This document shows, piece after piece, positions 10,632 through 48,898 of a stretch of DNA of 64,000 bases; the stretch's first letter is position 1, and each line of letters begins with the position of its first letter. The notes under the pieces were generated by a model that did not search any database, was not told where the DNA came from, and saw only the letters and a list, made by a program, of their open reading frames with translations. Source of the stretch: Candidatus Nezhaarchaeales archaeon (GTDB taxonomy: Archaea > Thermoproteota > Methanomethylicia > Nezhaarchaeales > WYZ-LMO8). The translations under genes were made by a program, and so were the position numbers. The stretch spans positions 640,001 to 704,000 of the forward strand of contig JAWAKK010000001.1 in NCBI GenBank assembly GCA_038887515.1, read 5' to 3'.

Positions 10632-10703
10632 TCTCCTTTTTCTATAGATAATTCCTTATGGCTAAAAGCTTTCTCAATATTTTGCACCGGCACCTACATC
10701 TCG

Positions 10704-31968: not shown

Positions 31969-32601
31969 CTAAGCCCTCCTTATCTTACCGTCAATTGTCA
32001 CTATAAGTTCTTCAATATTCAGCTTCTTCCCAGATCTCTCAAGGGCTTCGCGAGCTATCCTTGTTATGTCTGAGCAACATGGGACCTCCATTCTCACTGC
32101 CTTTATTGAAATAACGTCGTTACGCTTTATTAATCCCATAAGTTTATCCCTATAGAGGCTCTTATCCCCGAATATTGGGCAACCCGATACGACTATCTTA
32201 CCCCTCGACATTGAAGCAAAGTCTTTGTAGACGAAAGCTGTACAATCGGCCGCTACAACGAGTTCACGCCCACTTGAATTCAATAGCCGCGGATTAATAA
32301 GTTCAAGTTTTATAGGCCAGTTTACTATTCCAAAATCTTCAGATCGAGCCTCTTCATGGCGAAGAGGTTGTTCGACGTTCGGCTCGACCGACTCTATTCC
32401 CCGCTCATGGATTGTTATGGCACCCCTAGGACATTCCTTAATACATGCCCCCAAACCATCGCACATAGATTCCTTTACTAGCCTTGCCTTCCCATTAATT
32501 ATTTGGAGAGCCCCTTCTGGGCAAGCCGATATACAGGCACCACACCCATCACATTTCGTTTCATCTATCTTAATAATTTTCGTCGTGGAAATTTTTCCCA
32601 T
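31969..32601 (-). CDS. 2x[4Fe-4S] ferredoxin-domain protein (Hcp/CooS-neighbour type)
   Basis: CDGCGACISACP, CDGLGACIKECP, NWPIKL, AADC, GCP and MEVPCC motifs. Confidence 0.85.
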   Translation of the reverse strand: MGKISTTKIIKIDETKCDGCGACISACPEGALQIINGKARLVKESMCDGLGACIKECPRGAITIHERGIESVEPNVEQPLRHEEARSEDFGIVNWPIKLELINPRLLNSSGRELVVAADCTAFVYKDFASMSRGKIVVSGCPIFGDKSLYRDKLMGLIKRNDVISIKAVRMEVPCCSDITRIAREALERSGKKLNIEELIVTIDGKIRRA

Positions 32602-34060: not shown

Positions 34061-35059
34061 TCAGAGCCAGGCCGTGATCGAGGGAATTATCACTGAAATT
34101 ATGAGGGCTACCGCAGCCATTGGAAGGACGTACTTCCAGAATAATATTAATGCTTGATCTATCCTTAATCTACCGGTCATCGTTCTAATCCACGTCACCA
34201 CCGTCACTACGATTAAGTACTCTACCATCGTTATTATCAGGGATAAATATAATGGAAGGCCTGAGAATGGGATGGGGCCTCCGAAGAACAACATCGTTAT
34301 CAGTAATGAGCCTACTACGACCTCTACATCGTGCAGTCCTAGTATTAGAGCCAGCTTAAAGCCTGAGTACTCGGTAAAGGGTCCTGCAACTATCTCTGTC
34401 TCAGCCTCCGGTATGTCGAAAGGCTTGGTCATAAGCTTGCACTGAAGAGAGAGCAGAGCTGCTATGATAGAGAGTATCATAGGTATGACTGTGTATGGAT
34501 TCATCCAAAGCTTCCATGCTGTGAGGCACGACTTGTAGAGCGAGTATTCAGCTCCGTAAATCGTGCTAGATAAGACTACAGGTGTCAGTACCGATGCAAC
34601 GAAAGTAACTTCGTAGGCAAGAGTCATGCTGAGCACCCTCGATGTCCCAACGGTACTAAAAGGGTTCGGGGTAAGGGCACCTATGAGGGCTAAAGTTATA
34701 GTTGGCCACACGAGGAGGTACATGGCCAGCATTATATCGTGGCTAGCTACTATTGGGCGTAGTGGCGCTATAGGTAGCATGAGTACTAGGGCTACCGTAG
34801 ATCCAAGAGCTATCGACAAAAGTGTAACTGCTAGCCTTGGGCTGGAGCCCTCGGTTGAAACGTCTTCCTTAAAGAAGAGCTTGATGAAATCGGCTATTGG
34901 CTGCAAGATTCCGAAGGGACCTGTGTATAGAGGCCCTATCCTATTCTGCATGTGTGCGCAAAGCTTCCTATAGTACCATTGTGTTAACCAAGCTGCTACG
35001 CTTAAGAATACGAGCCCTGGATACACTATCACCTCAAATAAAAGGTCTAATACTGTCAT
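34061..35059 (-). CDS. Membrane hydrogenase subunit, NuoH/MbhM-like
   Basis: QNRIGP, GILQPIADFIKL and PFDIPEAETEIVAGPFTEYSG motifs. Confidence 0.9.
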   Translation of the reverse strand: MTVLDLLFEVIVYPGLVFLSVAAWLTQWYYRKLCAHMQNRIGPLYTGPFGILQPIADFIKLFFKEDVSTEGSSPRLAVTLLSIALGSTVALVLMLPIAPLRPIVASHDIMLAMYLLVWPTITLALIGALTPNPFSTVGTSRVLSMTLAYEVTFVASVLTPVVLSSTIYGAEYSLYKSCLTAWKLWMNPYTVIPMILSIIAALLSLQCKLMTKPFDIPEAETEIVAGPFTEYSGFKLALILGLHDVEVVVGSLLITMLFFGGPIPFSGLPLYLSLIITMVEYLIVVTVVTWIRTMTGRLRIDQALILFWKYVLPMAAVALIISVIIPSITAWL

Positions 35060-35400
35060 TAAGCCATCACCGCCACAAAAGTCGCTATTAATATCACCAT
35101 AAATATAAACATCCAGAACATCCAGTCGCTTAAGATTCCTGTATGGATCCTATCTCGAAGTGTGCTATAGAGAGAATGGAAGACCCTCTTCCATACTATC
35201 GAGTACATTCCTAAGTCGGGAAGACCTGTCTTGGAGGGCTGTAACGACTCACCGCAAGCAAAAGGCTTCCTCTTCTCCTCAGACCCCTTTGCAACTGACT
35301 TCGTAGCCCTTAAGGAGAGGCCGTAGATGGCTATGAGTATTACTGACGTTACAGCAATAGCAAAGGCCGCTTCCAGTACCGTAATTAGGAGAGGTAGCAT
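35059..35400 (-). CDS. MbhI-like small membrane subunit
   Basis: KPFACGE and HTGILSDW motifs; lies between the MrpD-like and NuoH-like genes. Confidence 0.75.
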   Translation of the reverse strand: MLPLLITVLEAAFAIAVTSVILIAIYGLSLRATKSVAKGSEEKRKPFACGESLQPSKTGLPDLGMYSIVWKRVFHSLYSTLRDRIHTGILSDWMFWMFIFMVILIATFVAVMA

Positions 35401-35406
35401 AATACA

Positions 35407-36999
35407 TCAACCTCCAAGTACCATTCTTATGATGTTCTGGGCTGCATATATGAAGCTCTGGGTATCGAAGAGAGATGAAACGGCTGGCAATATTACTTTA
35501 TCCACAAATATTGGCGCTAGTAAACCCAACATTATGCATGAACCTGCCAAGACCAATAGAGGTACGACCATGGATTTAGGCGCTTCCTTTATCGAAGACA
35601 TATCTCTAGTCGGTTGCCTAGCATAAATGTGATAGAAGGCCTTTAAGTAGCCCATCAACGCAAATACGCTTGTCAATACTATAACGACTACAAGTGGAGC
35701 CAACCAGCCGGTCTCCAAATAAGCTTTAAACAATAGCAACTTGCTCACAAACCCGTTAAGTGGAGGAGCACCTGCAAGAGCTAGAGAACCTATAAGAAGG
35801 GCCACGCTCGTCAGGGGCATTCTCTTGCCAATGCCAGCAAGCTCGTCAAGATTCCTACTACCCGCGGAGTGTATGATGGCTCCGGCTACCATGAATAGGA
35901 GGGCCTTCCCTATCGCGTGGTTTACTAAGTGGAAGAGGGCCGCTGATAATCCATCCGGGTTAGCTAGACCCATGCCCATAGCTATGTAACCTACGTTGAG
36001 GACTGTTCCGTACGCGATTAGCCTCTTCAGATCGCGTTGCGTAAGCATCAGCGTGGACCCTATGATTGCGGATGTAACGCCTAGGATTATCAGTGCGTAG
36101 TTAAGTGCTTGAACTATCGGGACTGTTGGTGACGCTTCTCTGAATATCGTTATTAGATACCTCATCAGCGCGAAGAGAGCAACTTTGACCATTAACCCCG
36201 ATAGTATTGCTGATATAGGTGATGGAGCGGCTGGATGAGCATCGGGAAGCCAGAAGTGGTTGGGAGCTAATGCAGCCTTTAAGCTGAAGGCCCAGAACGT
36301 CAAAGCCAAGAATATAGCAGAGCCTAGGAATACATTGCCAATCGGTGGACCCGTTACCGGTAATGTGGAGCCTCTAAGTTTTAAGGCTAGGTCGGCCATG
36401 TTCAGCGTACCAAAGGTTCCATAGGCAAACGTTAGGGCTATGAAGTATGCAGTTGTAGCGATTGAGCCTATAATCGCATACTTTACTGCTGCTTCGACAG
36501 CTTCGTGGGTTTCTCGGCGGAACGCTATTAAACCGTAAGCTGAAACCGACATTACTTCGAGCATTACGAAAAGGTTAAACATGTCGCCAGTATAGACGCA
36601 GCCAAGCATGCCTGCCTCGAAGCCTAGCATCAACGTGTAATATAGTTGCATTCTCGTCTCATGTTCCATGTAGCGCAGGCTGAAGATTGCCGCCGTTAAT
36701 ACTAGGCTAGTTATCAGGAGGCCCATTAGTGCTCCGCTACGATCAATCTCGTAAACTATACCTATGGGCGGAGGCCATGCACCGAAAATGTAAATAAGCG
36801 GTTCACTCGATTCAACGAAGAGATGATATGCTACTACGAGCGATAACATGAAGTCTATTGAGAAAATCGTTAAAGCAAAGCCCTCCCAAGCAACCCTCTT
36901 CTTTATAATTAAACTTATTAAGGGTAGCAGGAAAGCTGCAGCTATAGCTAAGAACGGCTGTACAGCTGCAAGCTTTACAGCATAATTTAGTTCGATCAA
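35407..36999 (-). CDS. MrpD/MbhH antiporter-like subunit
   Basis: WPPPIGI, TGDMFNLFVMLEV, HFWLPDAHPAAPSPISAILSG and HAIGKALLF motifs. Confidence 0.92.
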   Translation of the reverse strand: MIELNYAVKLAAVQPFLAIAAAFLLPLISLIIKKRVAWEGFALTIFSIDFMLSLVVAYHLFVESSEPLIYIFGAWPPPIGIVYEIDRSGALMGLLITSLVLTAAIFSLRYMEHETRMQLYYTLMLGFEAGMLGCVYTGDMFNLFVMLEVMSVSAYGLIAFRRETHEAVEAAVKYAIIGSIATTAYFIALTFAYGTFGTLNMADLALKLRGSTLPVTGPPIGNVFLGSAIFLALTFWAFSLKAALAPNHFWLPDAHPAAPSPISAILSGLMVKVALFALMRYLITIFREASPTVPIVQALNYALIILGVTSAIIGSTLMLTQRDLKRLIAYGTVLNVGYIAMGMGLANPDGLSAALFHLVNHAIGKALLFMVAGAIIHSAGSRNLDELAGIGKRMPLTSVALLIGSLALAGAPPLNGFVSKLLLFKAYLETGWLAPLVVVIVLTSVFALMGYLKAFYHIYARQPTRDMSSIKEAPKSMVVPLLVLAGSCIMLGLLAPIFVDKVILPAVSSLFDTQSFIYAAQNIIRMVLGG

Positions 37000-37514
37000 T
37001 CGAAGACCCCCCTAATATATTTCTCGAAGGATTTTGATATTGCATCGTAACACTTCGAATCTTCCACGTCTTTCACATCTATCCAATGAACGTAGTAGCT
37101 TTTCTTAGTCTCATCTATGTCAACGACGACTGTTCCAGGCGTATTGGTTATTGAGCAAGCGACTGCAGCTATAGCGTAGTCGCTCTTGACGTAATAGGGC
37201 ACTCTAACTATGCCGGGCTTGATTGGCATTCTCGGGTTAAGTATCCTCTTAATCACATCCCAATGGCATTTAAGTTCCGCAATTAAGAAGTAGTAGAAGA
37301 AGTAAGCTATTGCCCATGCCCACCTAGCCAAGTTAAACGCTTTACCGGGATGCTCCTTTACCACCAAAGTTGAAGTGAAGAAGGCTACAACCGCAGACGC
37401 TATTATGCCGAGCGTTATCGTCATGAGGGATACGGACGCCGACACGATCAGGAAGACCACGAGCAGTAACAGGAATACTACTATAAAGCTTAGAATTCTC
37501 GTCCGGTTCATCAA
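36996..37514 (-). CDS. MrpE/MbhA subunit
   Basis: IKPGIVRVP, SITNTPGT and YVHWID motifs. Confidence 0.88.
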   Translation of the reverse strand: MMNRTRILSFIVVFLLLLVVFLIVSASVSLMTITLGIIASAVVAFFTSTLVVKEHPGKAFNLARWAWAIAYFFYYFLIAELKCHWDVIKRILNPRMPIKPGIVRVPYYVKSDYAIAAVACSITNTPGTVVVDIDETKKSYYVHWIDVKDVEDSKCYDAISKSFEKYIRGVFD

Positions 37515-37517
37515 TTA

Positions 37518-37907
37518 TCACCCTTTAAGTCTAGTTATCTTCTTAACCATGATGGTGCCGTAGAGTCTATATACCTGGATTATTAGGAAGGCAATTAACA
37601 TCGTTATAGCCATGTTTATGACTATGGCTGTTACTACTAAACATTGAGGCACTGGATCTACGGCTACAGAAGCAAACCAAGCTATGTCAGTTGGCGTTGG
37701 TGCTTCTACGTGCAGTATTGGAGGTTGAGGTGTACCAAGTCTAAAGCCTATGTATATTATCAAGACGTTGGCTACGTCACCAAAAATGCTTAATGCGATA
37801 AGCTTCTTGGTAAGTGAGGCACCCCTAACTACTCCGTAAAGCGATATCGCCATTATAGCTATGAGGGCTAGGTAGCAGTACAGTTGAAGGAAGGCTTCAA
37901 TGTTCAC
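37518..37907 (-). CDS. MrpC/MbhG subunit
   Basis: KKLIAL and VDPVPQCLVVTAIVI motifs. Confidence 0.88.
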   Translation of the reverse strand: MNIEAFLQLYCYLALIAIMAISLYGVVRGASLTKKLIALSIFGDVANVLIIYIGFRLGTPQPPILHVEAPTPTDIAWFASVAVDPVPQCLVVTAIVINMAITMLIAFLIIQVYRLYGTIMVKKITRLKG

Positions 37908-38691
37908 GGCTGAACGCCCTCCTAAACTCTTCTTCAGGAATTGAGAGTAAGAGAAACAATAGTGTAAAGCCTGCTCCTACTGCAAGGAACTCTGCAATGT
38001 TGTAAAAGAAAATTGATCCAGAAGTCTCTACGGGGCCTATGGCTTCGGGGAATGAAAATAAGGGGGACCAGGGTTTTGCTTGGTTTTGCATTAACGCTAT
38101 TGCGCCGGCTAGAACAGGTAGACCTGCAACCAACACAATCATCATTAGAAAAGTCGTCTCAATAGTTAAACACCTATTCCTAGTTAATCTTAAGGTCCCC
38201 TCTAGGAAATATCGCGAGAAAGAGGCGATAATTATTAGTTGTGCAACAGCAAAAATGGAGCCTGCTTGGAAGCCGCCGATAATGGTAGCTATGGCTACCG
38301 AAACTATAACTATTAGGGGGTAGGTAAGCCTATTGACTGTCTTAACTATTATTGAAAGGCCCAGCTCCTTCTTCCTGTTGTTGGGGCCAAGCTTTATTCC
38401 AGCTATCTTGAATAAGGCTAGGCTACCCATGACAGCTAAGAAGAATACCGAGCTTTCGTAGTACGTATCTAGTCCTCTGTAATCCCATATCATAGCTGAT
38501 ACCGGCTCACGGCTTGCAGCCCACCATGTCTTATTGAATACGTTGAATGAGTTCTCCAAGTAGAACTTAGCCAATGGCCTTACTTCTTCTGAAGGGGTCC
38601 AACCAGTGCTACCCAACATTACTGTTGCCACCAAGGTAAAGAGGAAGACCGCAGCCATTATTCCTACAATTGCATCTTTAATTCGCATCAA
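37897..38691 (-). CDS. MrpB-type subunit (MbhE+MbhF fusion)
   Basis: WDYRGLDTYYE and GGFQAG motifs. Confidence 0.85.
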   Translation of the reverse strand: MMRIKDAIVGIMAAVFLFTLVATVMLGSTGWTPSEEVRPLAKFYLENSFNVFNKTWWAASREPVSAMIWDYRGLDTYYESSVFFLAVMGSLALFKIAGIKLGPNNRKKELGLSIIVKTVNRLTYPLIVIVSVAIATIIGGFQAGSIFAVAQLIIIASFSRYFLEGTLRLTRNRCLTIETTFLMMIVLVAGLPVLAGAIALMQNQAKPWSPLFSFPEAIGPVETSGSIFFYNIAEFLAVGAGFTLLFLLLSIPEEEFRRAFSREH

Positions 38692-38945
38692 TCTGACTCC
38701 TCCATTCTTTCGGTCTTGCTTATAACGTAGAGAAGTACTATTGTGTAGATCCCTACGGCTACGGCAACATACGCTAGAACTATGTCAACAGCCATGAGTA
38801 GGAGTAGGGCTATAGCGAACGTTGCTGACTGGCCAGCTGAAAAGATGGCTGCCTTTACCAAGTCTCTGCTTTTGATGGCAAAGTACGTGAATAACGCTCC
38901 TAGCGTGAACGATAATGCTAATAATGATAATGCTACTAGAGACAT
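38688..38945 (-). CDS. MbhD/DUF4040 subunit
   Basis: RDLVKAAIFS...AVDIVLAYVAVAVG, three TM helices. Confidence 0.8.
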   Translation of the reverse strand: MSLVALSLLALSFTLGALFTYFAIKSRDLVKAAIFSAGQSATFAIALLLLMAVDIVLAYVAVAVGIYTIVLLYVISKTERMEESD

Positions 38946-39322
38946 TATCCTCCCCTCCTCTTATCCTCCTCTAGGAGATCGCAGACCTTAGGTTCTACTG
39001 GAACCCCATGCCGGTGAGCCCCTCTAGCTAAGGCATGTGATCCTACCGGGGCCGTAATTACTATTATTAGGGCGGTTATAAACGAGCCTGCAGCTAGGAA
39101 CCATTTCCACTCTCCAAGAAAGTCGCAGGCTATAACCATTAGGGTTAAGCCGAATAATGGATAGACTGCGCCGCCAATTACTCCCACCGTAGCTGCATGA
39201 AGTCGAACAAAGAAGTTTGGAAACCTTACGAGACCTAGAGCGGCTACAAGATCGCAAAACGCCCCAATAATCATTAGTACAATCCCTAAGTATAGGAAAA
39301 TCGGTTCCAATATTGACCACAC
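38945..39322 (-). CDS. MrpG/MbhC subunit
   Basis: GLVRFPNFFVRLHAAT and APVGSHALA motifs. Confidence 0.88.
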   Translation of the reverse strand: MWSILEPIFLYLGIVLMIIGAFCDLVAALGLVRFPNFFVRLHAATVGVIGGAVYPLFGLTLMVIACDFLGEWKWFLAAGSFITALIIVITAPVGSHALARGAHRHGVPVEPKVCDLLEEDKRRGG

Positions 39323-39324
39323 GA

Positions 39325-39609
39325 TTATTCACCCAACTCCTTTCTTTCAAGGTATTTAGCCACGTATAAGTCGAAAATGTAAGTCCAAAGGGCGAGGCAA
39401 ATTGCACATACTATCAGGATGGGGGCTTCGAAGTATATGGCTAATACGGCCATTAGGAAACATACGTCGTAAGACAGGCAGTCGACCGCTAAAGTCATGT
39501 CTGCAACCGTTGGCCCTTTTATCGCTCTCACTACGTAAAGGATTATTGCAACACCAAATATCGGTATAACTGCGATGATGACCGTTTTGACGAGCTCTTC
39601 AATCGTCAA
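39325..39609 (-). CDS. MrpF/MbhB subunit
   Basis: RAIKGPTVAD...AVD and AKYLE motifs. Confidence 0.85.
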   Translation of the reverse strand: MTIEELVKTVIIAVIPIFGVAIILYVVRAIKGPTVADMTLAVDCLSYDVCFLMAVLAIYFEAPILIVCAICLALWTYIFDLYVAKYLERKELGE

Positions 39610-39787
39610 GCTCCGTGCACCGCCCTATAATTTAGGGGCTCTTTCACCATCTCACATAGATATTTATTATAAGTCTTACGCCTTCTTTCACAATTAATGT
39701 TAAGTCGGAGATTCTGATGGATTATCATACTAACGGGCTTTATGCAAGGACGTAGAAGACTACGTAGAGCTTAAAAGTCTAAGCGCT

Positions 39788-40252
39788 GTGAGCTCTAGAG
39801 GCAAAAGGTGTGGAGCTTTGTCTCTACAGAGACTGGCGACGTGGGCGAGGATTAAGTCTCCTTGGATACTACATGTCAATACTGGTGCATGCAATTCGTG
39901 CGACATAGAATTGCTGGCGGCTCTGACCCCTAGGTTTGACGTTGAGCGATTCGGAATACTTTTAAAGCCTTCTCCGAGACACGCTGACGTGCTAATGGTA
40001 ACGGGCGCCGTTACTAGGCAGGCAGCAGAGAGGATTAAAAGGATTTACGAGCAGACCCCCGACCCCAAATTTGTAGTGGCCTTGGGAAACTGCACAATAA
40101 GCGGAGGTGTATTCCAAAACTGTTATGGAGTGCTGGGTGGGGTTGACAAAGTCATCCCCGTCGATACTTATATACCAGGCTGCCCACCAAGACCTGACGC
40201 CATAATCTATGGAGTTCTAAAGTTGATAGAGAAGGTGACAAAAGGTGGCTGA
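39788..40252 (+). CDS. Group 4 [NiFe]-hydrogenase small subunit (MbhJ/NuoB-like)
   Basis: GACNSCDIE, SPRHAD, GNC and PGCPPRP motifs. The start may be TTG at 39818. Confidence 0.92.
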   Translation: MSSRGKRCGALSLQRLATWARIKSPWILHVNTGACNSCDIELLAALTPRFDVERFGILLKPSPRHADVLMVTGAVTRQAAERIKRIYEQTPDPKFVVALGNCTISGGVFQNCYGVLGGVDKVIPVDTYIPGCPPRPDAIIYGVLKLIEKVTKGG

Positions 40253-40694
40253 AGTACATCCCGATATCTCGACAAGTCTTAAAGAAGAGCTTAAGGAGGC
40301 CCTACTTGATTGCGAGTACATAGCTAAGAGAAGGGTCCTCAAGGTTATAATCGAAAAAGAGGCCCTACTTAGAACTATAGGGCTAATAAGCAAGATTAGT
40401 AATGGAGAATACCACCTTACAACTATAACTGGGGCTGACCTAGATGGCGACCAAGTAGAGCTCACGTACTTTTTGTGGCTTTTACCTCAAAAGCTTCGAG
40501 TATTAATTAAGACAAGAGTTCCAAAGAGAGAATTAAAGATTCGAAGTCTAACCGATTTTATACCGGCAGCGGTGCTTTATGAAAGAGAGACCTATGAGAT
40601 GTTGGGGGTAGTTTTTGAAGGTCATCAAAAGCTTGAGAGGCTGTTCCTACCCGAAGACTGGCCTGAAGGGTCTTACCCATTAAGGAGGGATTGA
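40245..40694 (+). CDS. MbhK/NuoC-like subunit
   Basis: TITGAD and YERETYEMLGVVFEGH...LFLPEDWP...PLRRD motifs. Confidence 0.9.
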   Translation: MAEVHPDISTSLKEELKEALLDCEYIAKRRVLKVIIEKEALLRTIGLISKISNGEYHLTTITGADLDGDQVELTYFLWLLPQKLRVLIKTRVPKRELKIRSLTDFIPAAVLYERETYEMLGVVFEGHQKLERLFLPEDWPEGSYPLRRD

Positions 40695-40695
40695 C

Positions 40696-41859
40696 TTGTC
40701 AACCATAGACTTAACTGTTGGACCTATACACCCAGCTTTACATGAACCTGAAAGGTTCATGTTTAAAGTTGACGGTGAGGTCGTAGTCGACGTAGAGCCG
40801 AGACTTGGATATGTGCATAGAGGTATAGAGAAGGCCGCAACCGAAAGGACTTTTATTCAAAGTTTATACTTGATTGAGAGGATATGTGGTATATGTAACG
40901 TCTCTCATACACTAGCCTGCGTCCAAGCCATTGAAGATGCTTTTAACATCGAGCCACCAAAGAGGGCCAAATACTTAAGGAGCGTGGTCCACGAATTGAA
41001 CAGGATTCATAGCCACTTACTAATATTGGGTATAGCATGCGAATTAATAGGCTTCGATACCATGTTCATGTTAATGTGGAGAGACCGTGAAAAGGTTATG
41101 GATTTAATCGAGATGATTACTGGGAATAGAGTTATGTCGGCCTACAACATTATAGGCGGAGTTAGAAGAAATATTAGAGATTTCGAGGTATCAGAGCTCA
41201 AAAAGACATTAGGTGGCCTCGTCGAGAGAGTTAAGCGATATAAAAATGCATTCATGGAGGATCCAACAATAAGAGCTAGGTTAGTTAATGTTGGTTACCT
41301 CAATAGATCTAAGGCTTTAAGTCTTGGGGCAGTAGGCCCGGTAGCTAGGGGGTCAGGCTTAGGTGTGGATGTTAGAGTCGAAGAACCCTATGCCGTCTAC
41401 GACGAACTGACGTTTAATGTAGTCGTGTATGAAGAGGGAGATTCATGGGCTAGGTTCATGGTTAGGCTAGACGAGATAATAGAATCCATAAAGATAATAG
41501 AAAATTGCCTAGATAAGATGCCTACAGGTCCAGTTAAGGTACCAGTTCCTGGAGCTGCACCTCAAAACGCTGAGGGCTTCTCTATAATTGAAGCCCCCCG
41601 CGGAGAACTGATACATCACATCTACGTTAAGAAGGGTAGCGAAAAACCATTGCGCTATAGGGTTAGAACTCCCACTTACGCTAATATACCTGCGGTCTGT
41701 GAGATACTAAGAGGAGGATACATAGCTGACATTCCTGCAACTCTTGTCAGTATAGATCCATGTTTTTCATGTACCGATAGAGTTGCTATTATAGACGTTA
41801 AAACTGAAAAGAAGACGAGCATAGATATCTTCACATTGGCAAGGAGGTATAGGAAGTGA
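40696..41859 (+). CDS. Group 4 [NiFe]-hydrogenase large subunit (MbhL-like)
   Basis: Both Ni-binding motifs are intact: ERICGIC and DPCFSCTDR, followed by a C-terminal extension. Confidence 0.93.
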   Translation: MSTIDLTVGPIHPALHEPERFMFKVDGEVVVDVEPRLGYVHRGIEKAATERTFIQSLYLIERICGICNVSHTLACVQAIEDAFNIEPPKRAKYLRSVVHELNRIHSHLLILGIACELIGFDTMFMLMWRDREKVMDLIEMITGNRVMSAYNIIGGVRRNIRDFEVSELKKTLGGLVERVKRYKNAFMEDPTIRARLVNVGYLNRSKALSLGAVGPVARGSGLGVDVRVEEPYAVYDELTFNVVVYEEGDSWARFMVRLDEIIESIKIIENCLDKMPTGPVKVPVPGAAPQNAEGFSIIEAPRGELIHHIYVKKGSEKPLRYRVRTPTYANIPAVCEILRGGYIADIPATLVSIDPCFSCTDRVAIIDVKTEKKTSIDIFTLARRYRK

Positions 41860-42194
41860 AGATTCCTTCGCTCTTTAAAGAGGTGTGGTCTAACTTAATC
41901 AAGAGACCGGCCACGCTTAAGTATCCGTTTAAGAAATTACCAGTCCCCCAAACATATCGAGGGTTACATATACTGGTAAGGGAGCGATGCACAGGTTGCG
42001 GTCTCTGTTCTAAAGTATGTCCAGCATTCGCCATATTGATGAGACCTGTAGGTGGGAGGGTTTACCCCTTTATTGACTTGGGCAAATGTGTTTTTTGCTT
42101 TCAATGCGAAGACGCGTGTCCTCGAGGAGCTATAAAACGTGGAAAAAGTTATGAGCTCGCAACTTGGAAAAGAAGTGAATTAATATTCGGGTGA
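41856..42194 (+). CDS. MbhN/NuoI-like 2x[4Fe-4S] subunit
   Basis: TLKYPF, CTGCGLCSKVCP and CVFCFQCEDACP motifs. Confidence 0.9.
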   Translation: MKIPSLFKEVWSNLIKRPATLKYPFKKLPVPQTYRGLHILVRERCTGCGLCSKVCPAFAILMRPVGGRVYPFIDLGKCVFCFQCEDACPRGAIKRGKSYELATWKRSELIFG

Positions 42195-42200
42195 GTTAAA

Positions 42201-43259
42201 GTGGTTAGTATGGAAAGCTTGTCCCAAAAGTTTCTTGGACCCAAGGGATTCAACGACTTAGTAAACGAAGTCGTAGCTAAAAGAATTTGTTGTAAATGCG
42301 GTCTTTGCGTTTCGTCTTGCCCAGTACACGCAGTTGCGATGACCGAAGAAGGTCCAGAGCTCGTCAGTCCATGTAAACAATGCGAGGCATGCTATTATGG
42401 TTGTCCAAGGGGTCCAGCTTTCTCGCATGAGTTACTTGAAGCTTCTTTAAATTCTAAGAGTAAAGACGAAGTTCTAGGAAGATACATCAAGATAGTTAGC
42501 GCGAAGACCTTGCTTAAGGAGGTAGGGGCGAGGGCGCAAGACGGTGGCGTCGTTACATCCCTCTTGATATACGCCCTTAGAAACAAGCTAGTAGATGGAG
42601 CCGTGGTAGCGTCGAAAAGTCGCCCAGATCCTTGGAGACCAGAGCCTCGATTGGCCTTAACCGTAGACGATATCTTAGAGGCGGCTGGAACGAAGTACTC
42701 CAATTGCCCAAACCTAGTAGCCTTAGAGGAGGCAGTTTACGGCTATGAGCTCGATAAGGTTTGCGTAGTTGGGGTACCTTGTCAAGTTGCCGCGGCTCGA
42801 AACGTTAAGGTTCAGCCAAGAGCTGCGACAAAACTAGGAGACAAGATAGCATTCATTATCGGACTGTTCTGTATGGAATCCTTCAACCATAGAAGGCTTC
42901 TGGAATTCATGGCATCTCGCAATATTGACATACAAAAGGTGTCTAAGTTTGACATAAAGGAAGGTAAATTTAAGGCTTATATAGAAGGTGCTGAAGTCCT
43001 AGGCGTTCCCATAAAAGAAGTTAAGGGGTGCGTAAACGAGTACTGCCATGTATGTAGAGATCTTACTGCGCTCTACTCCGACATATCTGTCGGAGCCATA
43101 GGCTCCCAGCGCGGATGGTCAACGGTTATAATACGAACTAGCCAAGGAGCTGAGCTATTCGAGGGAGCTGTCAGAGAAGGATACTTGGAGGTCAAGGACA
43201 TTGAGAGCGGAATCTCCATATTAAAGAAGATAGCCGAAAGAAAAGCTTCACAAAAATAG
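42201..43259 (+). CDS. F420-binding FrhB/FpoF-like subunit with N-terminal ferredoxin domain
   Basis: CCKCGLCVSSCP and CKQCEACYYGCP, then QDGGVVT, GTKY, VGVPCQ, IGLFC and CHVC...DISVG motifs. Confidence 0.9.
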   Translation: MVSMESLSQKFLGPKGFNDLVNEVVAKRICCKCGLCVSSCPVHAVAMTEEGPELVSPCKQCEACYYGCPRGPAFSHELLEASLNSKSKDEVLGRYIKIVSAKTLLKEVGARAQDGGVVTSLLIYALRNKLVDGAVVASKSRPDPWRPEPRLALTVDDILEAAGTKYSNCPNLVALEEAVYGYELDKVCVVGVPCQVAAARNVKVQPRAATKLGDKIAFIIGLFCMESFNHRRLLEFMASRNIDIQKVSKFDIKEGKFKAYIEGAEVLGVPIKEVKGCVNEYCHVCRDLTALYSDISVGAIGSQRGWSTVIIRTSQGAELFEGAVREGYLEVKDIESGISILKKIAERKASQK

Positions 43260-46121
43260 CTATTCGAGGTACAATGCCGGCCTATATGGTACTGCATTGA
43301 ATCGACGGTTTTTAGGGTCGTAAGCTTCTTCTTCCCTCCATATTTTAATTTTAAATTTAAATTCTCGTTCTAGAAACTCTTTAGCTGATGTAAGAACTTC
43401 ATATTCATCTAATATCCCGACATTTAACCTCACTTCTCTTTCCTCTCTGCTTACAGACGAAGCTTCCATGACGATTCTATGTATCATTTTAGAATCATTC
43501 ACTTGAAGATCTTTCGCTGCTTGATATGCCACTTTGATCGCTTCTTTAGGTGATGGTGCCCCTAGGGCCTTTAAATAAACTTCCCATTTCCGCTTAGAAG
43601 CTACGTAGATATGTGCTATCGAAGGAGTTATCTTCGTCGCCCTTATTATTTCCCTTAGGTCCTCAATCACCTGTTCTATTAGCAACTCGGAGGCTTCTGC
43701 AAGGTAGTCTATTTTGGACTCGTCGGGGGAGGGCCATGGAGCTCTACTGACGAAGCCTTCTCCGCCTAACATGCTCCAAAGCTCTTCGCACATGAAGGGG
43801 GCGAAGGGGGCTAACAGCCTAACCCAAGTCTTAGCTACTTCCAGCAATACCTCCCTAGAGGGCCTTTGAGTTCTTCTAAGATACCATCGAATGTCGTTCC
43901 AGACTTCGAATAGAGCGATTTCTAAGGCGGTCCTATTCCTCATAGACTCAAGGGCTTCGGTTACCGCTCTTACCCTCCTTTGCAACTTACTTATCAACCA
44001 CCTTTCAAGGACCCCTCTGGAACCAGAACTTTGTGTCGATGCTATGTCAGCAATAAACTTGAAAACCTGATTTAGCTTTTCTCTCATGTCTCTGCAAGTA
44101 TCAAATTTCCAATTTGGATCGTCCATACCTTCAGCAGCTATCATAAGGGAGCATCTAACAGCGTCGGCTCCATAGCTCGCTATCACATCGTTCAAAGTAA
44201 CGAAGTTGCCCTTAGACTTAGACATCTTCTCTCCTTCAACCATCATTATCCCATTAACAGCAATACCTCGAGGCCATAGCTCCTCCTGAAATATTGCCGT
44301 GTGATGAAAGAGGAAGAACGTTAAGTGATTTGGAACTAAGTCTTTACCAGAGCCTCTTAGGTCTACGGGGTACCAGTACAAGAACTCTCTTCTTACCTCC
44401 TCTACGAGTTCTGGCTTTAAGCCGCTAGTACTCGAAGCTAGCTCTAGACTTCCTTCGCCAAGAATGACGTAGTCAAAAAACTCCTCGGTTAAGTTATCGG
44501 CCTTCAAAAGACCTTTGTTTACGTACTTGGCTATTATGTAGAAGGCCATGTATATCGTTGAGTCGCTGAGGGTCTCAACTATCCAAGAATGGTCCCAAGG
44601 AAGAGGGGTTCCAAGACCTGTCCTCCTAGCACAAGCCCAATCCCTAAGCCAATCTACTACTTCAAAGAAGTAGTTCCTAGCCTCTTCGGGGTAAATGTTG
44701 ATCCTTGATATTAGCCTTTTAGTCTTAGCTTTCCACTCGGGATCTGAATATCTAAGGAACCATTGGTCAGTTAAAATCTTGACTATGCACCTAGTCGTAC
44801 ATCTACACACAACCCTTTCAGGTAATTCGTACATTTGATCTGACAGGCTTGCTTTCTTCATGTCTTCAAAAACTTTTTCTTTAGCATCCGAGACCTTGAG
44901 CCCAGCATAGTTCAAGCAGTTCTCCTTCATGATTCCTGAATGATACTCCTTCTTGTATACGATTCTGGTGGCTTCATCAGCTTTAGCATCTAGTTGGTCT
45001 TTGACGTTCAACTTATCTACGATTTCTATCGCTGGATAGTCCCCAAAACCTTCGACCCTTATTATTGATATCGGGGTTATGCCCTCAATCACCTTAGGAT
45101 CTAAACCGTACTTTTTAAGGTTCTCCGGGTCTCTAATTAAATCCCTTAGAGCTAACCAATCATACGGTGCATGGGCTGGCACGCTGAAGACTATGCCTGT
45201 ACCATTTTCGGGGTCCACAAAGTTTGCTGGAAGTACTGGAAGATCCCGGCCGGTTATCGGAGCTCTACAGGATAATCCTATTAATTCCTTTCCTCTAAGT
45301 TCCCTTAGAACCTCTACTTTTCTAAGTTGTTCTTTAAGCTTCATTGCCGCAGGCTTACTTACTATCCATTTCTCGCCATCAATTCTTGCTTCAACGTAGA
45401 TCGCCTCTGGGTTTACCCACAGGTTCGTAGCCCCAAATATCGTCTCAGGCCTAAAGGTGGCTGCAGGTAGGTAAGTATCGCTACACCTGAACTTCACCAA
45501 GACGTAGAGTTCTGGCGAAACCCCTTCACCCTCAAGTCTATCGTGATCTCCCGTCGGGCTTTGGCAGTGTGGGCACCAAACAACTGGGTGAGTGCCCTTG
45601 ACTACGTAGCCCCTCTTCTTAAGTTTATTGAACTGCCAAGTTACGAACTTCGAGAAGGCTGAGTGATAGCTCGAAGTATGGAATTCCCTCCTCCAGTCTA
45701 TTGATAAACCCATGTCTATAACCGTCTTCCTGTTCTCGTTCATGTAATATGAGGCCATGTATACGGGGTCCGTGAACCTCTTAATTTCCTCCTCAGGGAC
45801 CTTGTCTACAGTCTTAAGCGTCCTAATGAGTTTCTCATCTCCTTTACTTATCCTCTCAGCTGCACCTACAATTGGTTCTCCAGTCCAGTGCCAAGCGAAT
45901 GGAAAGAGCACGTTGTAGCCTTGCATCCTCTTAAATCGCGCGTACACATCTAATCTAGTTGCTGAAAAGCCGTGTCCAACGTGGAGCCTTCCATTCACGT
46001 AAGGGAATGGAAATGTGACGAAGATCTTCGGTCTGCCTGGTTGAGGATCAGCCTCGAAGATTCCCTCCTTTAACCATCTCTCCTTCCATCTTTCTTCTAT
46101 GCTTCTCCAGTCCAGCTCCAT
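43260..46121 (-). CDS. leuS: Leucyl-tRNA synthetase (archaeal type)
   Basis: FPYVNGRLHVGH, SDSTIYMA, GKDLVPNHL and KMSKSKGN motifs. Confidence 0.96.
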   Translation of the reverse strand: MELDWRSIEERWKERWLKEGIFEADPQPGRPKIFVTFPFPYVNGRLHVGHGFSATRLDVYARFKRMQGYNVLFPFAWHWTGEPIVGAAERISKGDEKLIRTLKTVDKVPEEEIKRFTDPVYMASYYMNENRKTVIDMGLSIDWRREFHTSSYHSAFSKFVTWQFNKLKKRGYVVKGTHPVVWCPHCQSPTGDHDRLEGEGVSPELYVLVKFRCSDTYLPAATFRPETIFGATNLWVNPEAIYVEARIDGEKWIVSKPAAMKLKEQLRKVEVLRELRGKELIGLSCRAPITGRDLPVLPANFVDPENGTGIVFSVPAHAPYDWLALRDLIRDPENLKKYGLDPKVIEGITPISIIRVEGFGDYPAIEIVDKLNVKDQLDAKADEATRIVYKKEYHSGIMKENCLNYAGLKVSDAKEKVFEDMKKASLSDQMYELPERVVCRCTTRCIVKILTDQWFLRYSDPEWKAKTKRLISRINIYPEEARNYFFEVVDWLRDWACARRTGLGTPLPWDHSWIVETLSDSTIYMAFYIIAKYVNKGLLKADNLTEEFFDYVILGEGSLELASSTSGLKPELVEEVRREFLYWYPVDLRGSGKDLVPNHLTFFLFHHTAIFQEELWPRGIAVNGIMMVEGEKMSKSKGNFVTLNDVIASYGADAVRCSLMIAAEGMDDPNWKFDTCRDMREKLNQVFKFIADIASTQSSGSRGVLERWLISKLQRRVRAVTEALESMRNRTALEIALFEVWNDIRWYLRRTQRPSREVLLEVAKTWVRLLAPFAPFMCEELWSMLGGEGFVSRAPWPSPDESKIDYLAEASELLIEQVIEDLREIIRATKITPSIAHIYVASKRKWEVYLKALGAPSPKEAIKVAYQAAKDLQVNDSKMIHRIVMEASSVSREEREVRLNVGILDEYEVLTSAKEFLEREFKFKIKIWREEEAYDPKNRRFNAVPYRPALYLE

Positions 46122-46153: not shown

Positions 46154-47497
46154 TTAGGCTTTACTTGATACTTGTACTTCCGAGACAAGTATTGGTGGTG
46201 AGTACAAGTTAAAGTGCTTAGCTCTTTCATTACCTATGGCCTTGATGTTCTTGACTAAACCGGCTATATTGGTCGCAAACAGTGTATGTTTTACGGGCGT
46301 CTTTACCTCGCCCTTTTCTATAATATACCCGCAAGTAACCATTGCAGATAGGTCTCCGGTCGCTACGTTGGGAACGTCGTAGGTATCAAGTATTAAAAGC
46401 CCATCCTCAACTTCTCGAATCATCTCTTCTAGGTGCCAGTCACCGGTCTCTACTACTATGTTTGAAGGAGCTATGGTGACCTGCCCCCTAAAGTCTAGGG
46501 GGCCTCCACTCCTTGAGGCGTTACCTGTGCTTCTCGTCCCAGCCTTACCAGCGGTATACGAATTGTGAAGAAGTCCTTTTACGACCCCCTCTTCTATCAA
46601 TATAGTCCTTTGTCTAGGAGAACCCTCAACGTCAAACCTTCTAGTAAAGGGACCTCCTTCAACGAGACCGTCGTCTACTACTGTAAGAGAGCTGACGCCA
46701 ATCTTTTGGTTCATCTTCGTAGACAGGTAACTCCTACCCCTCTGAACTAAGTCTGCATTTAGAGCCGACGCGATGCCTTCACCTATCATCGCTAACAACA
46801 CTTTGCCGGATAATACGGCTGGCGCCTTAGCGGTCTTATAGGGTTTTGCGTTGAGGCCGCGTATGGCTTCTTGAGCAACTTTCACTGCCACGGATTCCAT
46901 GTCTATGTCGTTCATAACCCTAACGACGTCACCGTCATAACTCGACGACATGTCAGTTCCATCCCTCGCAGTTACATATACTAGAAAGCTTAATTGCGTC
47001 CCTTCATCGACTCCTTCTACGCCGTTTGAATTCACCACGAAACACTTGAATTTCGAGCTTTCAAGTGTTATGTTCACGGAATATACTTTATCTATCTCGA
47101 TCTTTCTAGCTATTGAGACTACTATATCAACAAGTTCTTCCGGGGTTAACGAAGCTATCTTGTTGTCGTAAGTTCTCTGTGGAGATGGAAAGCTGGAGGG
47201 TCTTGGAAGTCCCTTAAAGTCTGGGTTCGGATAGCCTACTTTAGCCGCCTTTACAGCCTTACTAGCTACGTCGTTTACGTCGGCTTCTAGGCTTGTAGCG
47301 TAAGAATACCCGCTCGCTCCTTTGACTATAGCTCTAATGCCTACACCGACTTCATGGACGATCTTGGAAGCCTTTATAGCGCCTTTCCTAAGCTCTATTT
47401 TAAGGGTTTCAACATCTACACCGTACGCATCAACAGCTTCGGCACCGGACTTAAGAGCTTCATCGACGGCTCTCTTACAAAAAGTGAAGAGGTCCAT
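46154..47497 (-). CDS. pmbA: PmbA/TldE family protein
   Basis: FDVEG, STGNASR and TGDLS motifs; lacks HExxxH; downstream of tldD. Confidence 0.85.
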   Translation of the reverse strand: MDLFTFCKRAVDEALKSGAEAVDAYGVDVETLKIELRKGAIKASKIVHEVGVGIRAIVKGASGYSYATSLEADVNDVASKAVKAAKVGYPNPDFKGLPRPSSFPSPQRTYDNKIASLTPEELVDIVVSIARKIEIDKVYSVNITLESSKFKCFVVNSNGVEGVDEGTQLSFLVYVTARDGTDMSSSYDGDVVRVMNDIDMESVAVKVAQEAIRGLNAKPYKTAKAPAVLSGKVLLAMIGEGIASALNADLVQRGRSYLSTKMNQKIGVSSLTVVDDGLVEGGPFTRRFDVEGSPRQRTILIEEGVVKGLLHNSYTAGKAGTRSTGNASRSGGPLDFRGQVTIAPSNIVVETGDWHLEEMIREVEDGLLILDTYDVPNVATGDLSAMVTCGYIIEKGEVKTPVKHTLFATNIAGLVKNIKAIGNERAKHFNLYSPPILVSEVQVSSKA

Positions 47498-48898
47498 TTA
47501 GCCCAAGCCCCCTATAACTACATCCCTAACCCTTATGTGGGGGGCCCCCGTAGTCACTCTCACGTATTGGTCTTCTTTACCACAGAAACCTGGCCTAAAT
47601 GAGAGATCGTTGGCCACGGCCTCAGTATTCATTAATACGTCCAACGTGTACCCGGAAAGGGATGCATCTCTGCAAAGTTGCTTTAACTCGCCTCCTTTAA
47701 CTACGTATAATTTGGAGCACTTGAAGACGAACTCGCCCTTCGCAGTATCTACATAACCATAGCTACTTCCTTGAGCGTAAACGCCCTCTTTAAGGTCTTG
47801 AAAGAGTTCTTCGACCTTCCAGTCCCCCCTCTCTATGAATGTATTAGTCATCCTTACTATGGGAATGGAGCTATAGCCTTGTGCCCTTGCGTTTCCAGTA
47901 GAGCTCACACCCATTCTAGTTGATGTTTCGAGACTGTGTAAATAGGACTTAAGAAAGCCCCTTTCAACCATTAGCGTTCCGCTTCCATTCGTACCCTCGC
48001 AATCTATTGGGATGTAACCAAAGAGACCCTTAATGGTTGGATCGTCTCTGACGGTGACGCCCTCCGAGCCCACCTTCTTCCCGATCATCCTTTCAAGTAT
48101 CGAGCCACCTTGCAAAACTATGTCTGCTTCACAAGCGTGTCCAAATGCTTCGTGGATAAAGACTCCAGCAAGCTCTGGATCGAGAATGCATGTATACTTA
48201 CCAGCAGGCGGGCTTCTAGCGTTTAAGAGTTCTAAGGCTTCTTCTGAAGCTTTCTGGGCAACCTGAACTGGGTCTCGTTGCCTTAATATTTCGAGCCCCC
48301 CGGTTCCACCATGACTTTCGTGCCCCCGTTGAATAACCCCCGCCTCACTTGCGTATGCAGTAGCTGAAATTATTAGTGACGGTATTGCGTAGTCTGCTCG
48401 AAGTCCAAGGCTATTAGCTATGCATGCGCTTTCCTCCATTTCGAAGTAAACTGCGTTCGTACTCTTGATTCTACTGCTTACGCTCTTCATGGCTTTCTCC
48501 ATTTCAGCACACAGCTTAAGCTTCTCTTCTACCGTGACCAACGATGGGTCTTCGCCTGGAACCACTCTTTGAGAGAGCTTGAGCGATCTACATGAAATGT
48601 CGAGATTTTCGGTTTTATCTTTGCTAACGCTCTTAGCCAACTTATACGCCCGTATACACGCTTTCTCAATCTCATGTGGAGTTAAGGCCGAAGTAGAGGT
48701 GAACCCCCACTTACCACCTATAAGACATCTTATGGCCAAGCCCCTTTCATTCATGAACTTTAGCTCTTTTAAGATGCCATCAGCTACCTCTATTCTAAGA
48801 CCCTTAATTTCAACAAACCTGACGTCCGCGAAGTCTACTTTGAAGCTTAACATTACGTCAAGCGCCTTCTGGACAAGGGTTTCATGGTGGCCATACAT
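47498..48898 (-). CDS. tldD: TldD metalloprotease
   Basis: FIHEAFGHACEAD, TGNARAQ, IVRMTNT and CGKEDQ motifs. Confidence 0.9.
   Translation of the reverse strand: MYGHHETLVQKALDVMLSFKVDFADVRFVEIKGLRIEVADGILKELKFMNERGLAIRCLIGGKWGFTSTSALTPHEIEKACIRAYKLAKSVSKDKTENLDISCRSLKLSQRVVPGEDPSLVTVEEKLKLCAEMEKAMKSVSSRIKSTNAVYFEMEESACIANSLGLRADYAIPSLIISATAYASEAGVIQRGHESHGGTGGLEILRQRDPVQVAQKASEEALELLNARSPPAGKYTCILDPELAGVFIHEAFGHACEADIVLQGGSILERMIGKKVGSEGVTVRDDPTIKGLFGYIPIDCEGTNGSGTLMVERGFLKSYLHSLETSTRMGVSSTGNARAQGYSSIPIVRMTNTFIERGDWKVEELFQDLKEGVYAQGSSYGYVDTAKGEFVFKCSKLYVVKGGELKQLCRDASLSGYTLDVLMNTEAVANDLSFRPGFCGKEDQYVRVTTGAPHIRVRDVVIGGLG

Follow-up and report, generated by a model that had tools for sequence, protein, structure and literature searches.

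Results

A [NiFe] hydrogenase locus with an FrhB-like gene

In this work, we analysed a 64,000-nucleotide stretch of DNA from a hot-spring Candidatus Nezhaarchaeales archaeon of the family WYZ-LMO8 (assembly GCA_038887515.1, contig JAWAKK010000001.1, positions 640,001 to 704,000). This stretch is called the window below, and coordinates are counted from its first letter. Using a listing of open reading frames (ORFs) and Pfam and NCBIfam scans, we showed that two divergent operons at 34061-43259 make up a full Mrp-Mbh hydrogenase gene set, and that the operon of the peripheral arm ends with a gene for an FrhB-like protein, that is, a relative of the flavoproteins that react with coenzyme F420. 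A first-pass annotation of the same DNA had named a full Mrp/Mbh set here. Its gene coordinates were all reproduced, and Pfam and NCBIfam confirmed every gene that it named. The family assignments are strong matches and not chance ones (Table 1).

The plus-strand operon (39788-43259) has the order mbhJ, mbhK, mbhL, mbhN, FrhB-like gene. In the translation of mbhL, motif L1 (RICGICNVSH) lies near the N-terminus, and motif L2 (DPCFSC) is followed by a C-terminal tail of 28 residues. Among the solved structures, the protein matches MbhL of Pyrococcus furiosus best (6cfw_L, 2.9e-87), followed by the subunit of E. coli formate hydrogenlyase (7z0s_E, 5.8e-77) and MbsL (6u8y_L, 3e-52). Because both nickel motifs are kept and MbhL is the best solved relative, we assign the protein, by its sequence, to the true [NiFe] hydrogenases of the Mbh type, as the first-pass annotation had done. 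A complex of the Mbx/Mbs or Fpo kind was rejected, since the large subunit has both Ni motifs. MbhN matches 6u8y_N (5.4e-22) and 6cfw_N (3.3e-17). The NuoB-, NuoC-, NuoI- and NuoH-like partners are all present, which corresponds to a group 4 membrane-bound [NiFe] hydrogenase of the Mrp-Mbh type.

The minus-strand operon (34061-39609) starts from the divergent spacer and encodes nine membrane proteins. Taking Pfam, NCBIfam and PDB sequence matches together, all 14 subunit types of the P. furiosus complex are accounted for. The Mrp antiporter module is present, with equivalents of MrpE, F, G, B, C and D and with MbhD; its MbhE part is weakly supported, and MbhI stays below the cutoff. The 264-aa MnhB-like protein matches the fused subunit of Mbs (6u8y_E, 2.2e-5) and weakly MbhE (6cfw_E, 0.008). 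Because of these matches, it probably covers both MbhE and MbhF; a Pfam search at E <= 1 found no MbhE domain in its residues 1-114. The MbhI-like protein gave no PDB match and no Pfam match (nothing credible at E <= 1), and the position of its gene is conserved in relatives. The spacer presumably holds the promoters of both operons. A scan gave 8 promoter-like sites at 6.9 expected, with a bacterial sigma-70 consensus that is uninformative for an archaeon. The locus is closed by a convergent leucyl-tRNA synthetase (LeuRS) gene at 43260-46121.

Thus, like Mbh of P. furiosus (PDB 6CFW), which we take to be a HydDB group 4d enzyme, the complex has the 14 subunit types, the Ni motifs and a Mrp-type sodium/proton module, and MbhL is its best solved match. 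Unlike it, the genes are arranged in two divergent operons and in another order, MbhE and MbhF are probably fused, and there is an extra FrhB-like gene. The Pyrococcus Mbh takes its electrons from ferredoxin and has no flavoprotein.

Table 1. Genes and spacer of the hydrogenase locus (coordinates in the window)
Feature	Position	Strand	Support
MbhM, NuoH-like membrane anchor of the hydrogenase module	34061..35059	-	PF00146 5.7e-69; NuoH/FpoH models below cutoff
MbhI-like small membrane subunit, weakly supported	35059..35400	-	NF053600 5.4e-7, 30 bits vs cutoff 95
MbhH, MrpD/NuoL-type antiporter-like subunit	35407..36999	-	PF00361 2.6e-58; PRK08376 388 bits, under cutoff 662
MnhE/MrpE-like subunit, MbhA equivalent	36996..37514	-	PF01899 6.7e-40
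NuoK/MrpC-like subunit, MbhG equivalent	37518..37907	-	PF00420 6e-15
MnhB-like subunit (264 aa), probably MbhE and MbhF fused	37897..38691	-	PF04039 on residues 115-243
MbhD	38688..38945	-	PF13244 1.2e-9
MnhG/MrpG-like subunit, MbhC equivalent	38945..39322	-	PF03334 1.9e-17
MrpF-like subunit, MbhB equivalent; first gene of the membrane-arm operon	39325..39609	-	PF04066 2.4e-11
Divergent intergenic spacer, 178 bp, A+T-rich	39610..39787	.	sequence read
MbhJ, NuoB-like small subunit	39788..40252	+	PF01058 1.9e-33; NF005012 178.6 bits, over cutoff 116
MbhK, NuoC-like	40245..40694	+	PF00329 3.7e-26
MbhL, [NiFe] large subunit	40696..41859	+	PF00346, PF00374; both Ni-binding CxxC motifs
MbhN, NuoI-like 2x[4Fe-4S] subunit, usual ferredoxin entry point	41856..42194	+	Fer4 families; TIGR01971 97.6 bits
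FrhB-family F420-reductase-type flavoprotein, 352 aa	42201..43259	+	PF04422 1e-23 (FrhB_FdhB_N), PF04432 5.9e-45 (FrhB_FdhB_C)

The FrhB-like protein resembles plug-in F420 reductases over its full length

The stop codon of mbhN ends at 42194, and the FrhB-like gene begins on the same strand with GTG at 42201, which leaves a gap of 6 bp with GGTGA just upstream of the start. This is the continuation of the J-K-L-N operon that the first-pass annotation had described. With an alternative in-frame ATG at 42210, the gap would be 15 bp. No terminator-like site was found between the two genes in a scan with a bacterial consensus, the host being archaeal.

The product was also claimed to have the architecture of FpoF, a ferredoxin domain joined to an FrhB core, and both domain and fold matches bear this out. 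Two CxxCxxCxxxCP motifs lie in the first 70 residues, ahead of the FrhB domains. The predicted build is an N-terminal 2x[4Fe-4S] domain (approximately residues 20-75) and an FrhB core with one [4Fe-4S] cluster and flavin adenine dinucleotide (FAD). All 12 cluster cysteines are invariant in 15 homologues: eight in the ferredoxin domain and four in the core (C194, C224, C282 and C285). The protein passed PRK09325, the model of the FrhB subfamily (289 bits vs cutoff 269), and stayed below the cutoffs of the frhB equivalog TIGR03289 (268.5 vs 331.5 bits) and of the FpoF model NF040616 (176.4 vs 475 bits, aligned over residues 21-350). TIGR03294 aligned on residues 19-71; this part is similar to the ferredoxin domain of FrhG.

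Comparison with the solved structures separates the possible relatives by the extent of the match. 6qgr_B and other FrhB chains match only the core (residues 88-349, 8.8e-62), and the 370-aa chain 8riu_B matches residues 17-351 (2.3e-60). An AlphaFold2 model made with a 15-sequence alignment had a pLDDT of 87.3 and a pTM of 0.87. In a Foldseek search with this model, the best match was again 8riu_B (TM 0.88, 349 columns), and 8rja_E followed with TM 0.83. These were followed by FrhB, with a match restricted to the core, and by Fsr, with its N-terminal half.

Both leading matches come from Ca. Ethanoperedens, 8RIU being a component of an F420-reducing carbon monoxide dehydrogenase (CODH) and 8RJA an F420-reducing Fwd (Lemaire, Wegener & Wagner 2024, PMC11493965). 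In the available text of that paper, the F420-reductase subunit consists of a ferredoxin domain with two clusters and an F420-reductase domain with one cluster and FAD, and the N-terminal domain anchors it to the host enzyme. Judged by this description, the FrhB-like protein has the same three-part build as the CODH zeta subunit (8RIU_B) and the Fwd subunit (8RJA_E) of Ca. Ethanoperedens thermophilum, plug-in modules that rewire a ferredoxin-type enzyme to F420. With zeta it shares the N-terminal 2x[4Fe-4S] domain, the FrhB-like domain and the full-length fold match. It differs from both in that its host would be a membrane hydrogenase, and the sequences are no more than 31-35% identical. With its 352 aa, the protein lacks the dimerising extension that zeta has at its C-terminus (350-370).

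The FrhB-like protein resembles FpoF of the Methanosarcina Fpo and FqoF of the Archaeoglobus Fqo in joining a ferredoxin domain to an FrhB core, and in having a partner from the complex I family, to which Mbh is homologous. Unlike them, its core is closer to FrhB, as the low FpoF score also indicates, and where their partners bind a quinone or methanophenazine, its partner has a [NiFe] site. With FrhB of the group 3a enzyme FrhABG (6QGR, 4OMF/3ZFS) it shares approximately 40% identity and a core TM of 0.85-0.87, and the overall reaction between H2 and F420 would be the same. Unlike the subunits of FrhABG, it has an FrhG-type ferredoxin domain fused to the FrhB core, and its partner would be membrane-bound and ion-coupled.

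F420 and other hydrogenases in the genome

The window genome comprises 1.29 Mb in nine contigs and is 94% complete. The search for F420-synthesis genes that the first-pass annotation had recommended found cofG, cofH, cofD and cofE, all over their NCBIfam cutoffs. The F420-dependent enzymes Mer and Mtd are over the cutoff as well, and in their cluster tblastn also found matches (51-60% identity) to a relative's Mch and FwdB-, FwdA- and FwdC-like ORFs. No FrhA was found over the cutoff in this genome (best score 148.9 vs 392.5). A search of the genome with the FrhB-like protein gave six matches. Only the window gene matched over the full length, and the other five matched in the ferredoxin domain only. 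Therefore, judging by gene content, F420 is synthesised in the cell and serves the methyl branch of the Wood-Ljungdahl pathway, and the only recognisable F420-recycling protein would be the one encoded at the end of the Mbh peripheral-arm operon.

Canonical FrhABG was rejected as the recycling enzyme: neither FrhA nor FrhG was found, and the only group 3 enzyme is encoded by a 3b-like operon of four genes, which also holds the best match to the FrhA model. This operon for a soluble [NiFe] enzyme of the sulfhydrogenase build (G000:C1:169300-173800; L140, 4319-8782) contains genes for a Fer4_22 protein, an FAD/NAD-binding protein, the small subunit and the large subunit, and a gene for a HycI protease follows.

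A second group 4 large subunit is encoded approximately 40 kb beyond the window (G000:C1:734000-746200, L139). It is 51% identical to MbhL and carries the motifs RICGIC...H and DPCMSC. The order of its cluster is NuoA-B-C-D-H-I-x-K plus three antiporter-like subunits, with no FrhB neighbour. This resembles the Fpo-like "Hfo" layout that the available text of Loh, Hervé & Brune (2021, PMC7886697) describes for Bathyarchaeia. Ferredoxin would be the putative substrate of the second hydrogenase. Only two group 4 large subunits were found in the genome, and a third complex of the Ehg-like kind was not found there.

The locus in relatives of the same family

We compared ten genomes of the family (G000 to G009, where G000 is the window genome). 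Among named records, contigs of Ca. Nezhaarchaeota archaeon WYZ-LMO8 are the closest; metagenome-assembled genomes (MAGs) labelled Methanomethylicota or "Nitrososphaerota" are also close. The FrhB-like proteins of these records are 72-74% identical to that of the window, and the LeuRS of WYZ-LMO8 is 83% identical. The large-subunit orthologues of G005, G006 and G009 carry the same Ni motifs.

The synteny survey that the first-pass annotation had asked for confirmed its expectation in part. The FrhB-like gene directly follows mbhN in five of the ten genomes (G000, G001, G005, G006 and G009; in G001 the contig ends inside the gene), and the arrangement is not universal, as G002, G004 and G008 depart from it. 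In G003 the contig ends 238 nt past the FrhB-like gene, and G007 (72% complete) gave no large-subunit match. Two tandem FrhB-like copies with 59% identity are present in G005 (locus L030, 8657-11052). In the trees, these copies define a "proximal" and a "distal" type. It turned out that the window copy is of the distal type even though it abuts mbhN, and that the mbhN-adjacent copy of G009 is of the proximal type. Because of this pattern, the sequences suggest a tandem duplication followed by differing losses of the paralogues. The window genome keeps one FrhB-like copy, in contrast to some relatives that have two.

Three genomes, G005, G006 and G009, gave McrA, and searches of G000, G001 and G003 did not find it; the 94%-complete window genome gave no candidate at all. 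Since McrA is split among these genomes, the Mbh-FrhB cluster occurs, as far as gene content tells, both with and without methyl-coenzyme M reductase.

Homologues beyond the family

To place the FrhB-like protein among its homologues, we used FastTree on 122 rows as an exploratory tree and a quick IQ-TREE run (LG+G4) on 46 picked rows. Among 80 named loci retrieved with the alignment, six have a large-subunit homologue within 10 kb: a WYZ-LMO8 contig, L055, L061, L064, L068 and L077. This collection overlaps the relatives already sampled; the tree rows are distinct after merging (122 rows). In L055, from a "Nitrososphaerales" MAG, the neighbour is a convergent [NiFe] cluster in Nuo order. The large-subunit homologues of L061 and L064, both from Thermoproteota MAGs, lack the Ni cysteines. 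In these two loci (approximately 8000-11040), the FrhB-like gene lies directly downstream of a gene for a NuoD-like protein of approximately 547 aa without Ni cysteines, and a second Cys-less NuoB-C-D-H-I set is nearby. They may represent an Fpo/Fqo-like complex together with its F420 input module.

The two remaining loci, L068 and L077, belong to Hadarchaeota. Here, an FrhB-like gene is embedded in an Mrp-Mbh operon with all genes on one strand, where it separates mbhH from mbhI-J-K-L-M-N, with hycI and hypA downstream, and the large subunit has both Ni motifs. Like the window, these loci combine a true [NiFe] Mrp-Mbh with an FrhB-like gene of the same architecture and the same direction of transcription. 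Unlike the window, they have their genes on a single strand and the FrhB-like gene at the mbhH-mbhI junction rather than after mbhN, and its product is only 41% identical and falls in a separate clade. In the IQ-TREE tree of 46 rows, one clade (SH-aLRT 99) unites the proteins of the Nezhaarchaeal family, which are not sister to the stand-alone homologues of other Nezhaarchaeales families, and the Hadarchaeota pair is a clade of its own. Uniting the two groups costs 61 log-likelihood units (approximately unbiased (AU) test, p = 0.009). Since they do not form one clade, it appears from the sequences that FrhB-like modules became partners of a true Mbh at least twice. Such a recurrent association is better functional evidence than gene order kept within one family. 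A literature search for an FrhB-like gene in a Hadarchaeota Mbh operon found no relevant publication.

Among the other retrieved loci, many of those from Promethearchaeota/Asgard MAGs (L084-L125) encode two to three FrhB-family paralogues. Two of these are arranged in tandem, and a small ferredoxin gene lies approximately 2 kb upstream.

Discussion

Relation to the published Ehi complex

The first-pass annotation saw in this locus the best candidate for an undescribed energy-conserving system. This claim does not hold. Kohtz, Nupp & Hatzenpichler (2025, Sci Adv, PMC12700198) cultivated Ca. Methanonezhaarchaeum fastidiosum YNP3N, and the available text of their paper reports an expressed group 4 [NiFe] hydrogenase flanked by frhB, proposed to oxidise F420H2 (expression n = 1). 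According to the same text, the FrhB-associated Ehi complex is largely conserved in the family f__WYZ-LMO8 (Methanonezhaarchaeaceae), F420 biosynthesis is encoded, no other F420-recycling gene was found, and a second group 4 hydrogenase would serve ferredoxin. Its numbering is inconsistent: the section on metabolism calls the frhB-flanked complex Ehi-1, and the comparative section calls it "FrhB-associated Ehi-2".

The window cluster agrees with this account in lineage, in a group 4 [NiFe] hydrogenase that is bound to the membrane and flanked by frhB, in F420 synthesis, in the lack of another recognised F420-recycling gene and in the second group 4 hydrogenase. It fits the description of Ehi as an frhB-flanked group 4 [NiFe] hydrogenase in f__WYZ-LMO8, and the WYZ-LMO8 contigs carry the same cluster; its probable identity with the YNP3N complex is judged by taxon and by the published description only. 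As a difference from the Ehi lineage as described there, neither McrA nor a third, Ehg-like group 4 large subunit was detected in the window genome; the missing McrA is consistent with that paper. Thus, both the arrangement and its interpretation are already in print for the Nezhaarchaeal lineage, as a genomic and transcriptomic inference (PMC12700198, in the text available). Of the first-pass interpretation, the mechanism is plausible and the novelty was wrong. Lone FrhB genes and group 4g hydrogenases are also mentioned, without being linked, in work on Culexarchaeia (PMC9723716) and in the available texts on Korarchaeia (PMC10667645) and Bathyarchaeia (PMC7886697). The present analysis contributes a fold match over the full length to the plug-in F420 reductases of Ethanoperedens, the history of the paralogues and a family tally that includes broken linkage. 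It also adds an FrhB-less genome in which cofD was not detected either, the retention of the cluster without McrA, and evidence for independent recruitment in Hadarchaeota.

A proposed F420-coupled, ion-translocating hydrogenase

The two mechanisms proposed in the first-pass annotation, a docked F420 module and a co-expressed ferredoxin:F420 oxidoreductase, are the reading that we favour and its main rival here. From the sequences, the structural model and the analogy with the Ethanoperedens modules, we consider it somewhat probable that the locus encodes an F420(H2)-coupled, ion-translocating [NiFe] hydrogenase with a docked FrhB-like module. The module would dock through its N-terminal 2x[4Fe-4S] ferredoxin domain on MbhN, the subunit with the distal clusters. 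Electrons would then pass along the wire F420(H2) - FAD - [4Fe-4S] - 2x[4Fe-4S] - MbhN 2x[4Fe-4S] - MbhJ [4Fe-4S] - [NiFe], and the complex would act as a reversible, membrane-coupled F420H2:H+ / H2:F420 oxidoreductase. In the window genome, it would be the sole route from the F420 pool of Mtd and Mer, that is, of the archaeal Wood-Ljungdahl pathway, to other redox carriers, and the second, Fpo-like [NiFe] hydrogenase would handle ferredoxin. The component genes, the motifs for cofactor binding, the place in the operon, a need of the genome for F420 recycling, the precedent of the fold and the recurrent association are observed, and physical docking, use of F420, ion coupling and direction are what we infer for the complex.

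The H+/H2 couple has a potential of -414 mV. The potential of F420, as quoted in the available text of PMC10667645, is approximately -340 mV. From these two values, H2-dependent F420 reduction yields approximately 14 kJ/mol under standard conditions, and the formation of H2 from F420H2 becomes favourable only at low H2 or with input from an ion gradient. Because the two couples are close in potential, the Mrp module could either conserve or spend energy, and a coupling module makes sense in either direction. It would conserve the small energy of H2-dependent F420 reduction, or else the ion gradient or low H2 would pull H2 out of F420H2.

Several observations weigh against this reading. Taken alone, a gene order shared within a single family is weak evidence, and in this family the linkage is broken twice. 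In G002, DUF362, diphthamide-synthase and chelatase genes come after mbhN, and a separate 3-kb contig carries the FrhB-like gene. In G004 (75% complete), a hybrid-cluster protein, an AsnC regulator, an aldehyde dehydrogenase and a ferredoxin are encoded ahead of the FrhB-like gene, and the only large subunit found is a paralogue with 50% identity. That an Mbh core can occur without the FrhB-like module is shown by the genome G008, one contig of 1.0 Mb with a rated completeness of 67%: the whole Mrp-Mbh-LeuRS synteny is kept (L149, 7696-13171, compared with 39788-46121 of the window), and the FrhB-like gene is missing, with 225 nt between mbhN and LeuRS. Genome-wide, no close homologue of the gene was found in G008 (best 30-31% identity).

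Outside the family sample, we looked at 13 further loci with 37-52% identity, which are the second G009 copy and twelve loci from sister families and other classes, and none of them has Mbh genes within approximately 9 kb. The annotated stand-alone loci (L036, L037, L042, L043 and L047) have housekeeping neighbours, such as HSP20, SUI1, arginase and TFIIB. Because these loci stand far from Mbh and among housekeeping genes, a protein of this family can evidently, by its genomic settings, work without an adjacent hydrogenase. One more point concerns the trees: the group used in the AU test was named after the exploratory FastTree tree had been seen.

Many of these observations would be expected if the FrhB-like protein were a soluble ferredoxin:F420 oxidoreductase, the role proposed for free FpoF and FqoF. 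It would then be merely co-expressed with Mbh, a shared ferredoxin pool being the reason, and Mbh would stay a ferredoxin-dependent, H2-evolving pump as in Pyrococcus. We regard this as possible, and as less likely than the docked module. The N-terminal 2x[4Fe-4S] domain could take electrons from free ferredoxin, stand-alone homologues built in the same way occur in sister families and other classes, and G008 has Mbh without the FrhB-like gene. The linkage to Mbh was lost in G002 and G004, and the FrhB-like gene has remained beside LeuRS in L029/L051 and L032/L050. An FqoF-type soluble role has also been proposed for Korarchaeia, in the available text of PMC10667645. However, the Hadarchaeota gene lies in the middle of an operon, between genes of membrane subunits, which is unusual for a free-standing enzyme, and the closest solved full-length relatives are permanently bound subunits. 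In addition, ferredoxin could be served by the second group 4 hydrogenase, which has no FrhB neighbour and for which this substrate is inferred.

The best structural matches, being F420 reductases of CODH and Fwd, can also be read in another way: the FrhB-like protein might serve an enzyme encoded elsewhere, of the Fwd, CODH/acetyl-CoA synthase (ACS) or Hdr type, and its place after mbhN would be an accident of family synteny. Apart from the broken linkage in G002 and G004, this would fit the FwdB-, FwdA- and FwdC-like matches next to Mtd, Mer and Mch in the window genome, and the pairing of FrhB with HdrA/MvhD or HdrABC proposed for other archaea (PMC9723716, PMC10667645 and PMC7886697, in the texts available). 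We nevertheless consider it improbable. The Fwd-like genes are approximately 640 kb from the FrhB-like gene and have no FrhB gene beside them, there is one FrhB gene in the genome, and the association with Mbh is independent in Hadarchaeota. The genome G008 is also against it, as neither the gene nor a cofD candidate was found in this genome, rated 67% complete, and the locus is otherwise unchanged. For comparison, cofD is over the cutoff in G005, G007 and G009. It is a single case, and by gene content it could be a co-loss of the FrhB-like module and of F420 synthesis.

It is very improbable that the module uses no F420 and is a diverged FrhB-fold flavoprotein for another acceptor such as NAD(P), another flavin or deazaflavin. 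Scores below the frhB and FpoF equivalog cutoffs and FrhB-fold proteins with other substrates, such as 7-hydroxymethyl chlorophyll a reductase (5dqr), would allow it. Against it, enzymes with demonstrated F420 use match the protein with 35-40% identity and TM 0.85-0.88, and the FrhB subfamily model scores it above its cutoff. In addition, F420 synthesis is encoded in the genome together with the F420-dependent Mtd and Mer, no other recycling enzyme was found, and G008 gave neither the gene nor cofD.

Possible significance

To our knowledge, all characterised group 4 hydrogenases receive electrons from ferredoxin, formate or CO modules. We know of a link between F420 and H2 only via the soluble Frh, and of a link between F420 and the membrane only via Fpo and Fqo, in which the [NiFe] site is lost. 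The strongest form of the docked-module reading, to which the sequences and the structural model give in our opinion an even chance, is that Mbh has a fifteenth, stoichiometric subunit in the FrhB-like protein. The resulting ion-translocating F420H2:H+ / H2:F420 oxidoreductase would be biochemically unprecedented and invented at least twice, in Nezhaarchaeales and in Hadarchaeota, by the recruitment of different FrhB-like lineages onto the ferredoxin port of Mbh. Where methanogenesis was lost, it would be the sole link between the F420 pool and H2. If this is true, the complex would represent a new enzyme activity, a membrane-bound and energy-coupled counterpart of the soluble Frh, and would show how machines of the complex I type swap their input modules. 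It would also explain how F420-dependent steps of the Wood-Ljungdahl pathway are balanced in Thermoproteota without Frh, and would bear on hydrogen cycling in the newly cultured thermoproteotal methanogens and their non-methanogenic kin.

Other observations in and near the window

On the minus strand at 31969-32601, upstream of the Mbh membrane operon, the window encodes a protein of approximately 210 aa with an N-terminal 2x[4Fe-4S] domain. A similar 220-aa gene (locus L031, 585-1247, minus strand) is present in the region that replaces Mbh beside the FrhB-like gene of G004. Downstream of LeuRS, also on the minus strand (46154-48898), there are tandem genes for metallopeptidases of the TldD/PmbA family, 447 and 466 aa in length.

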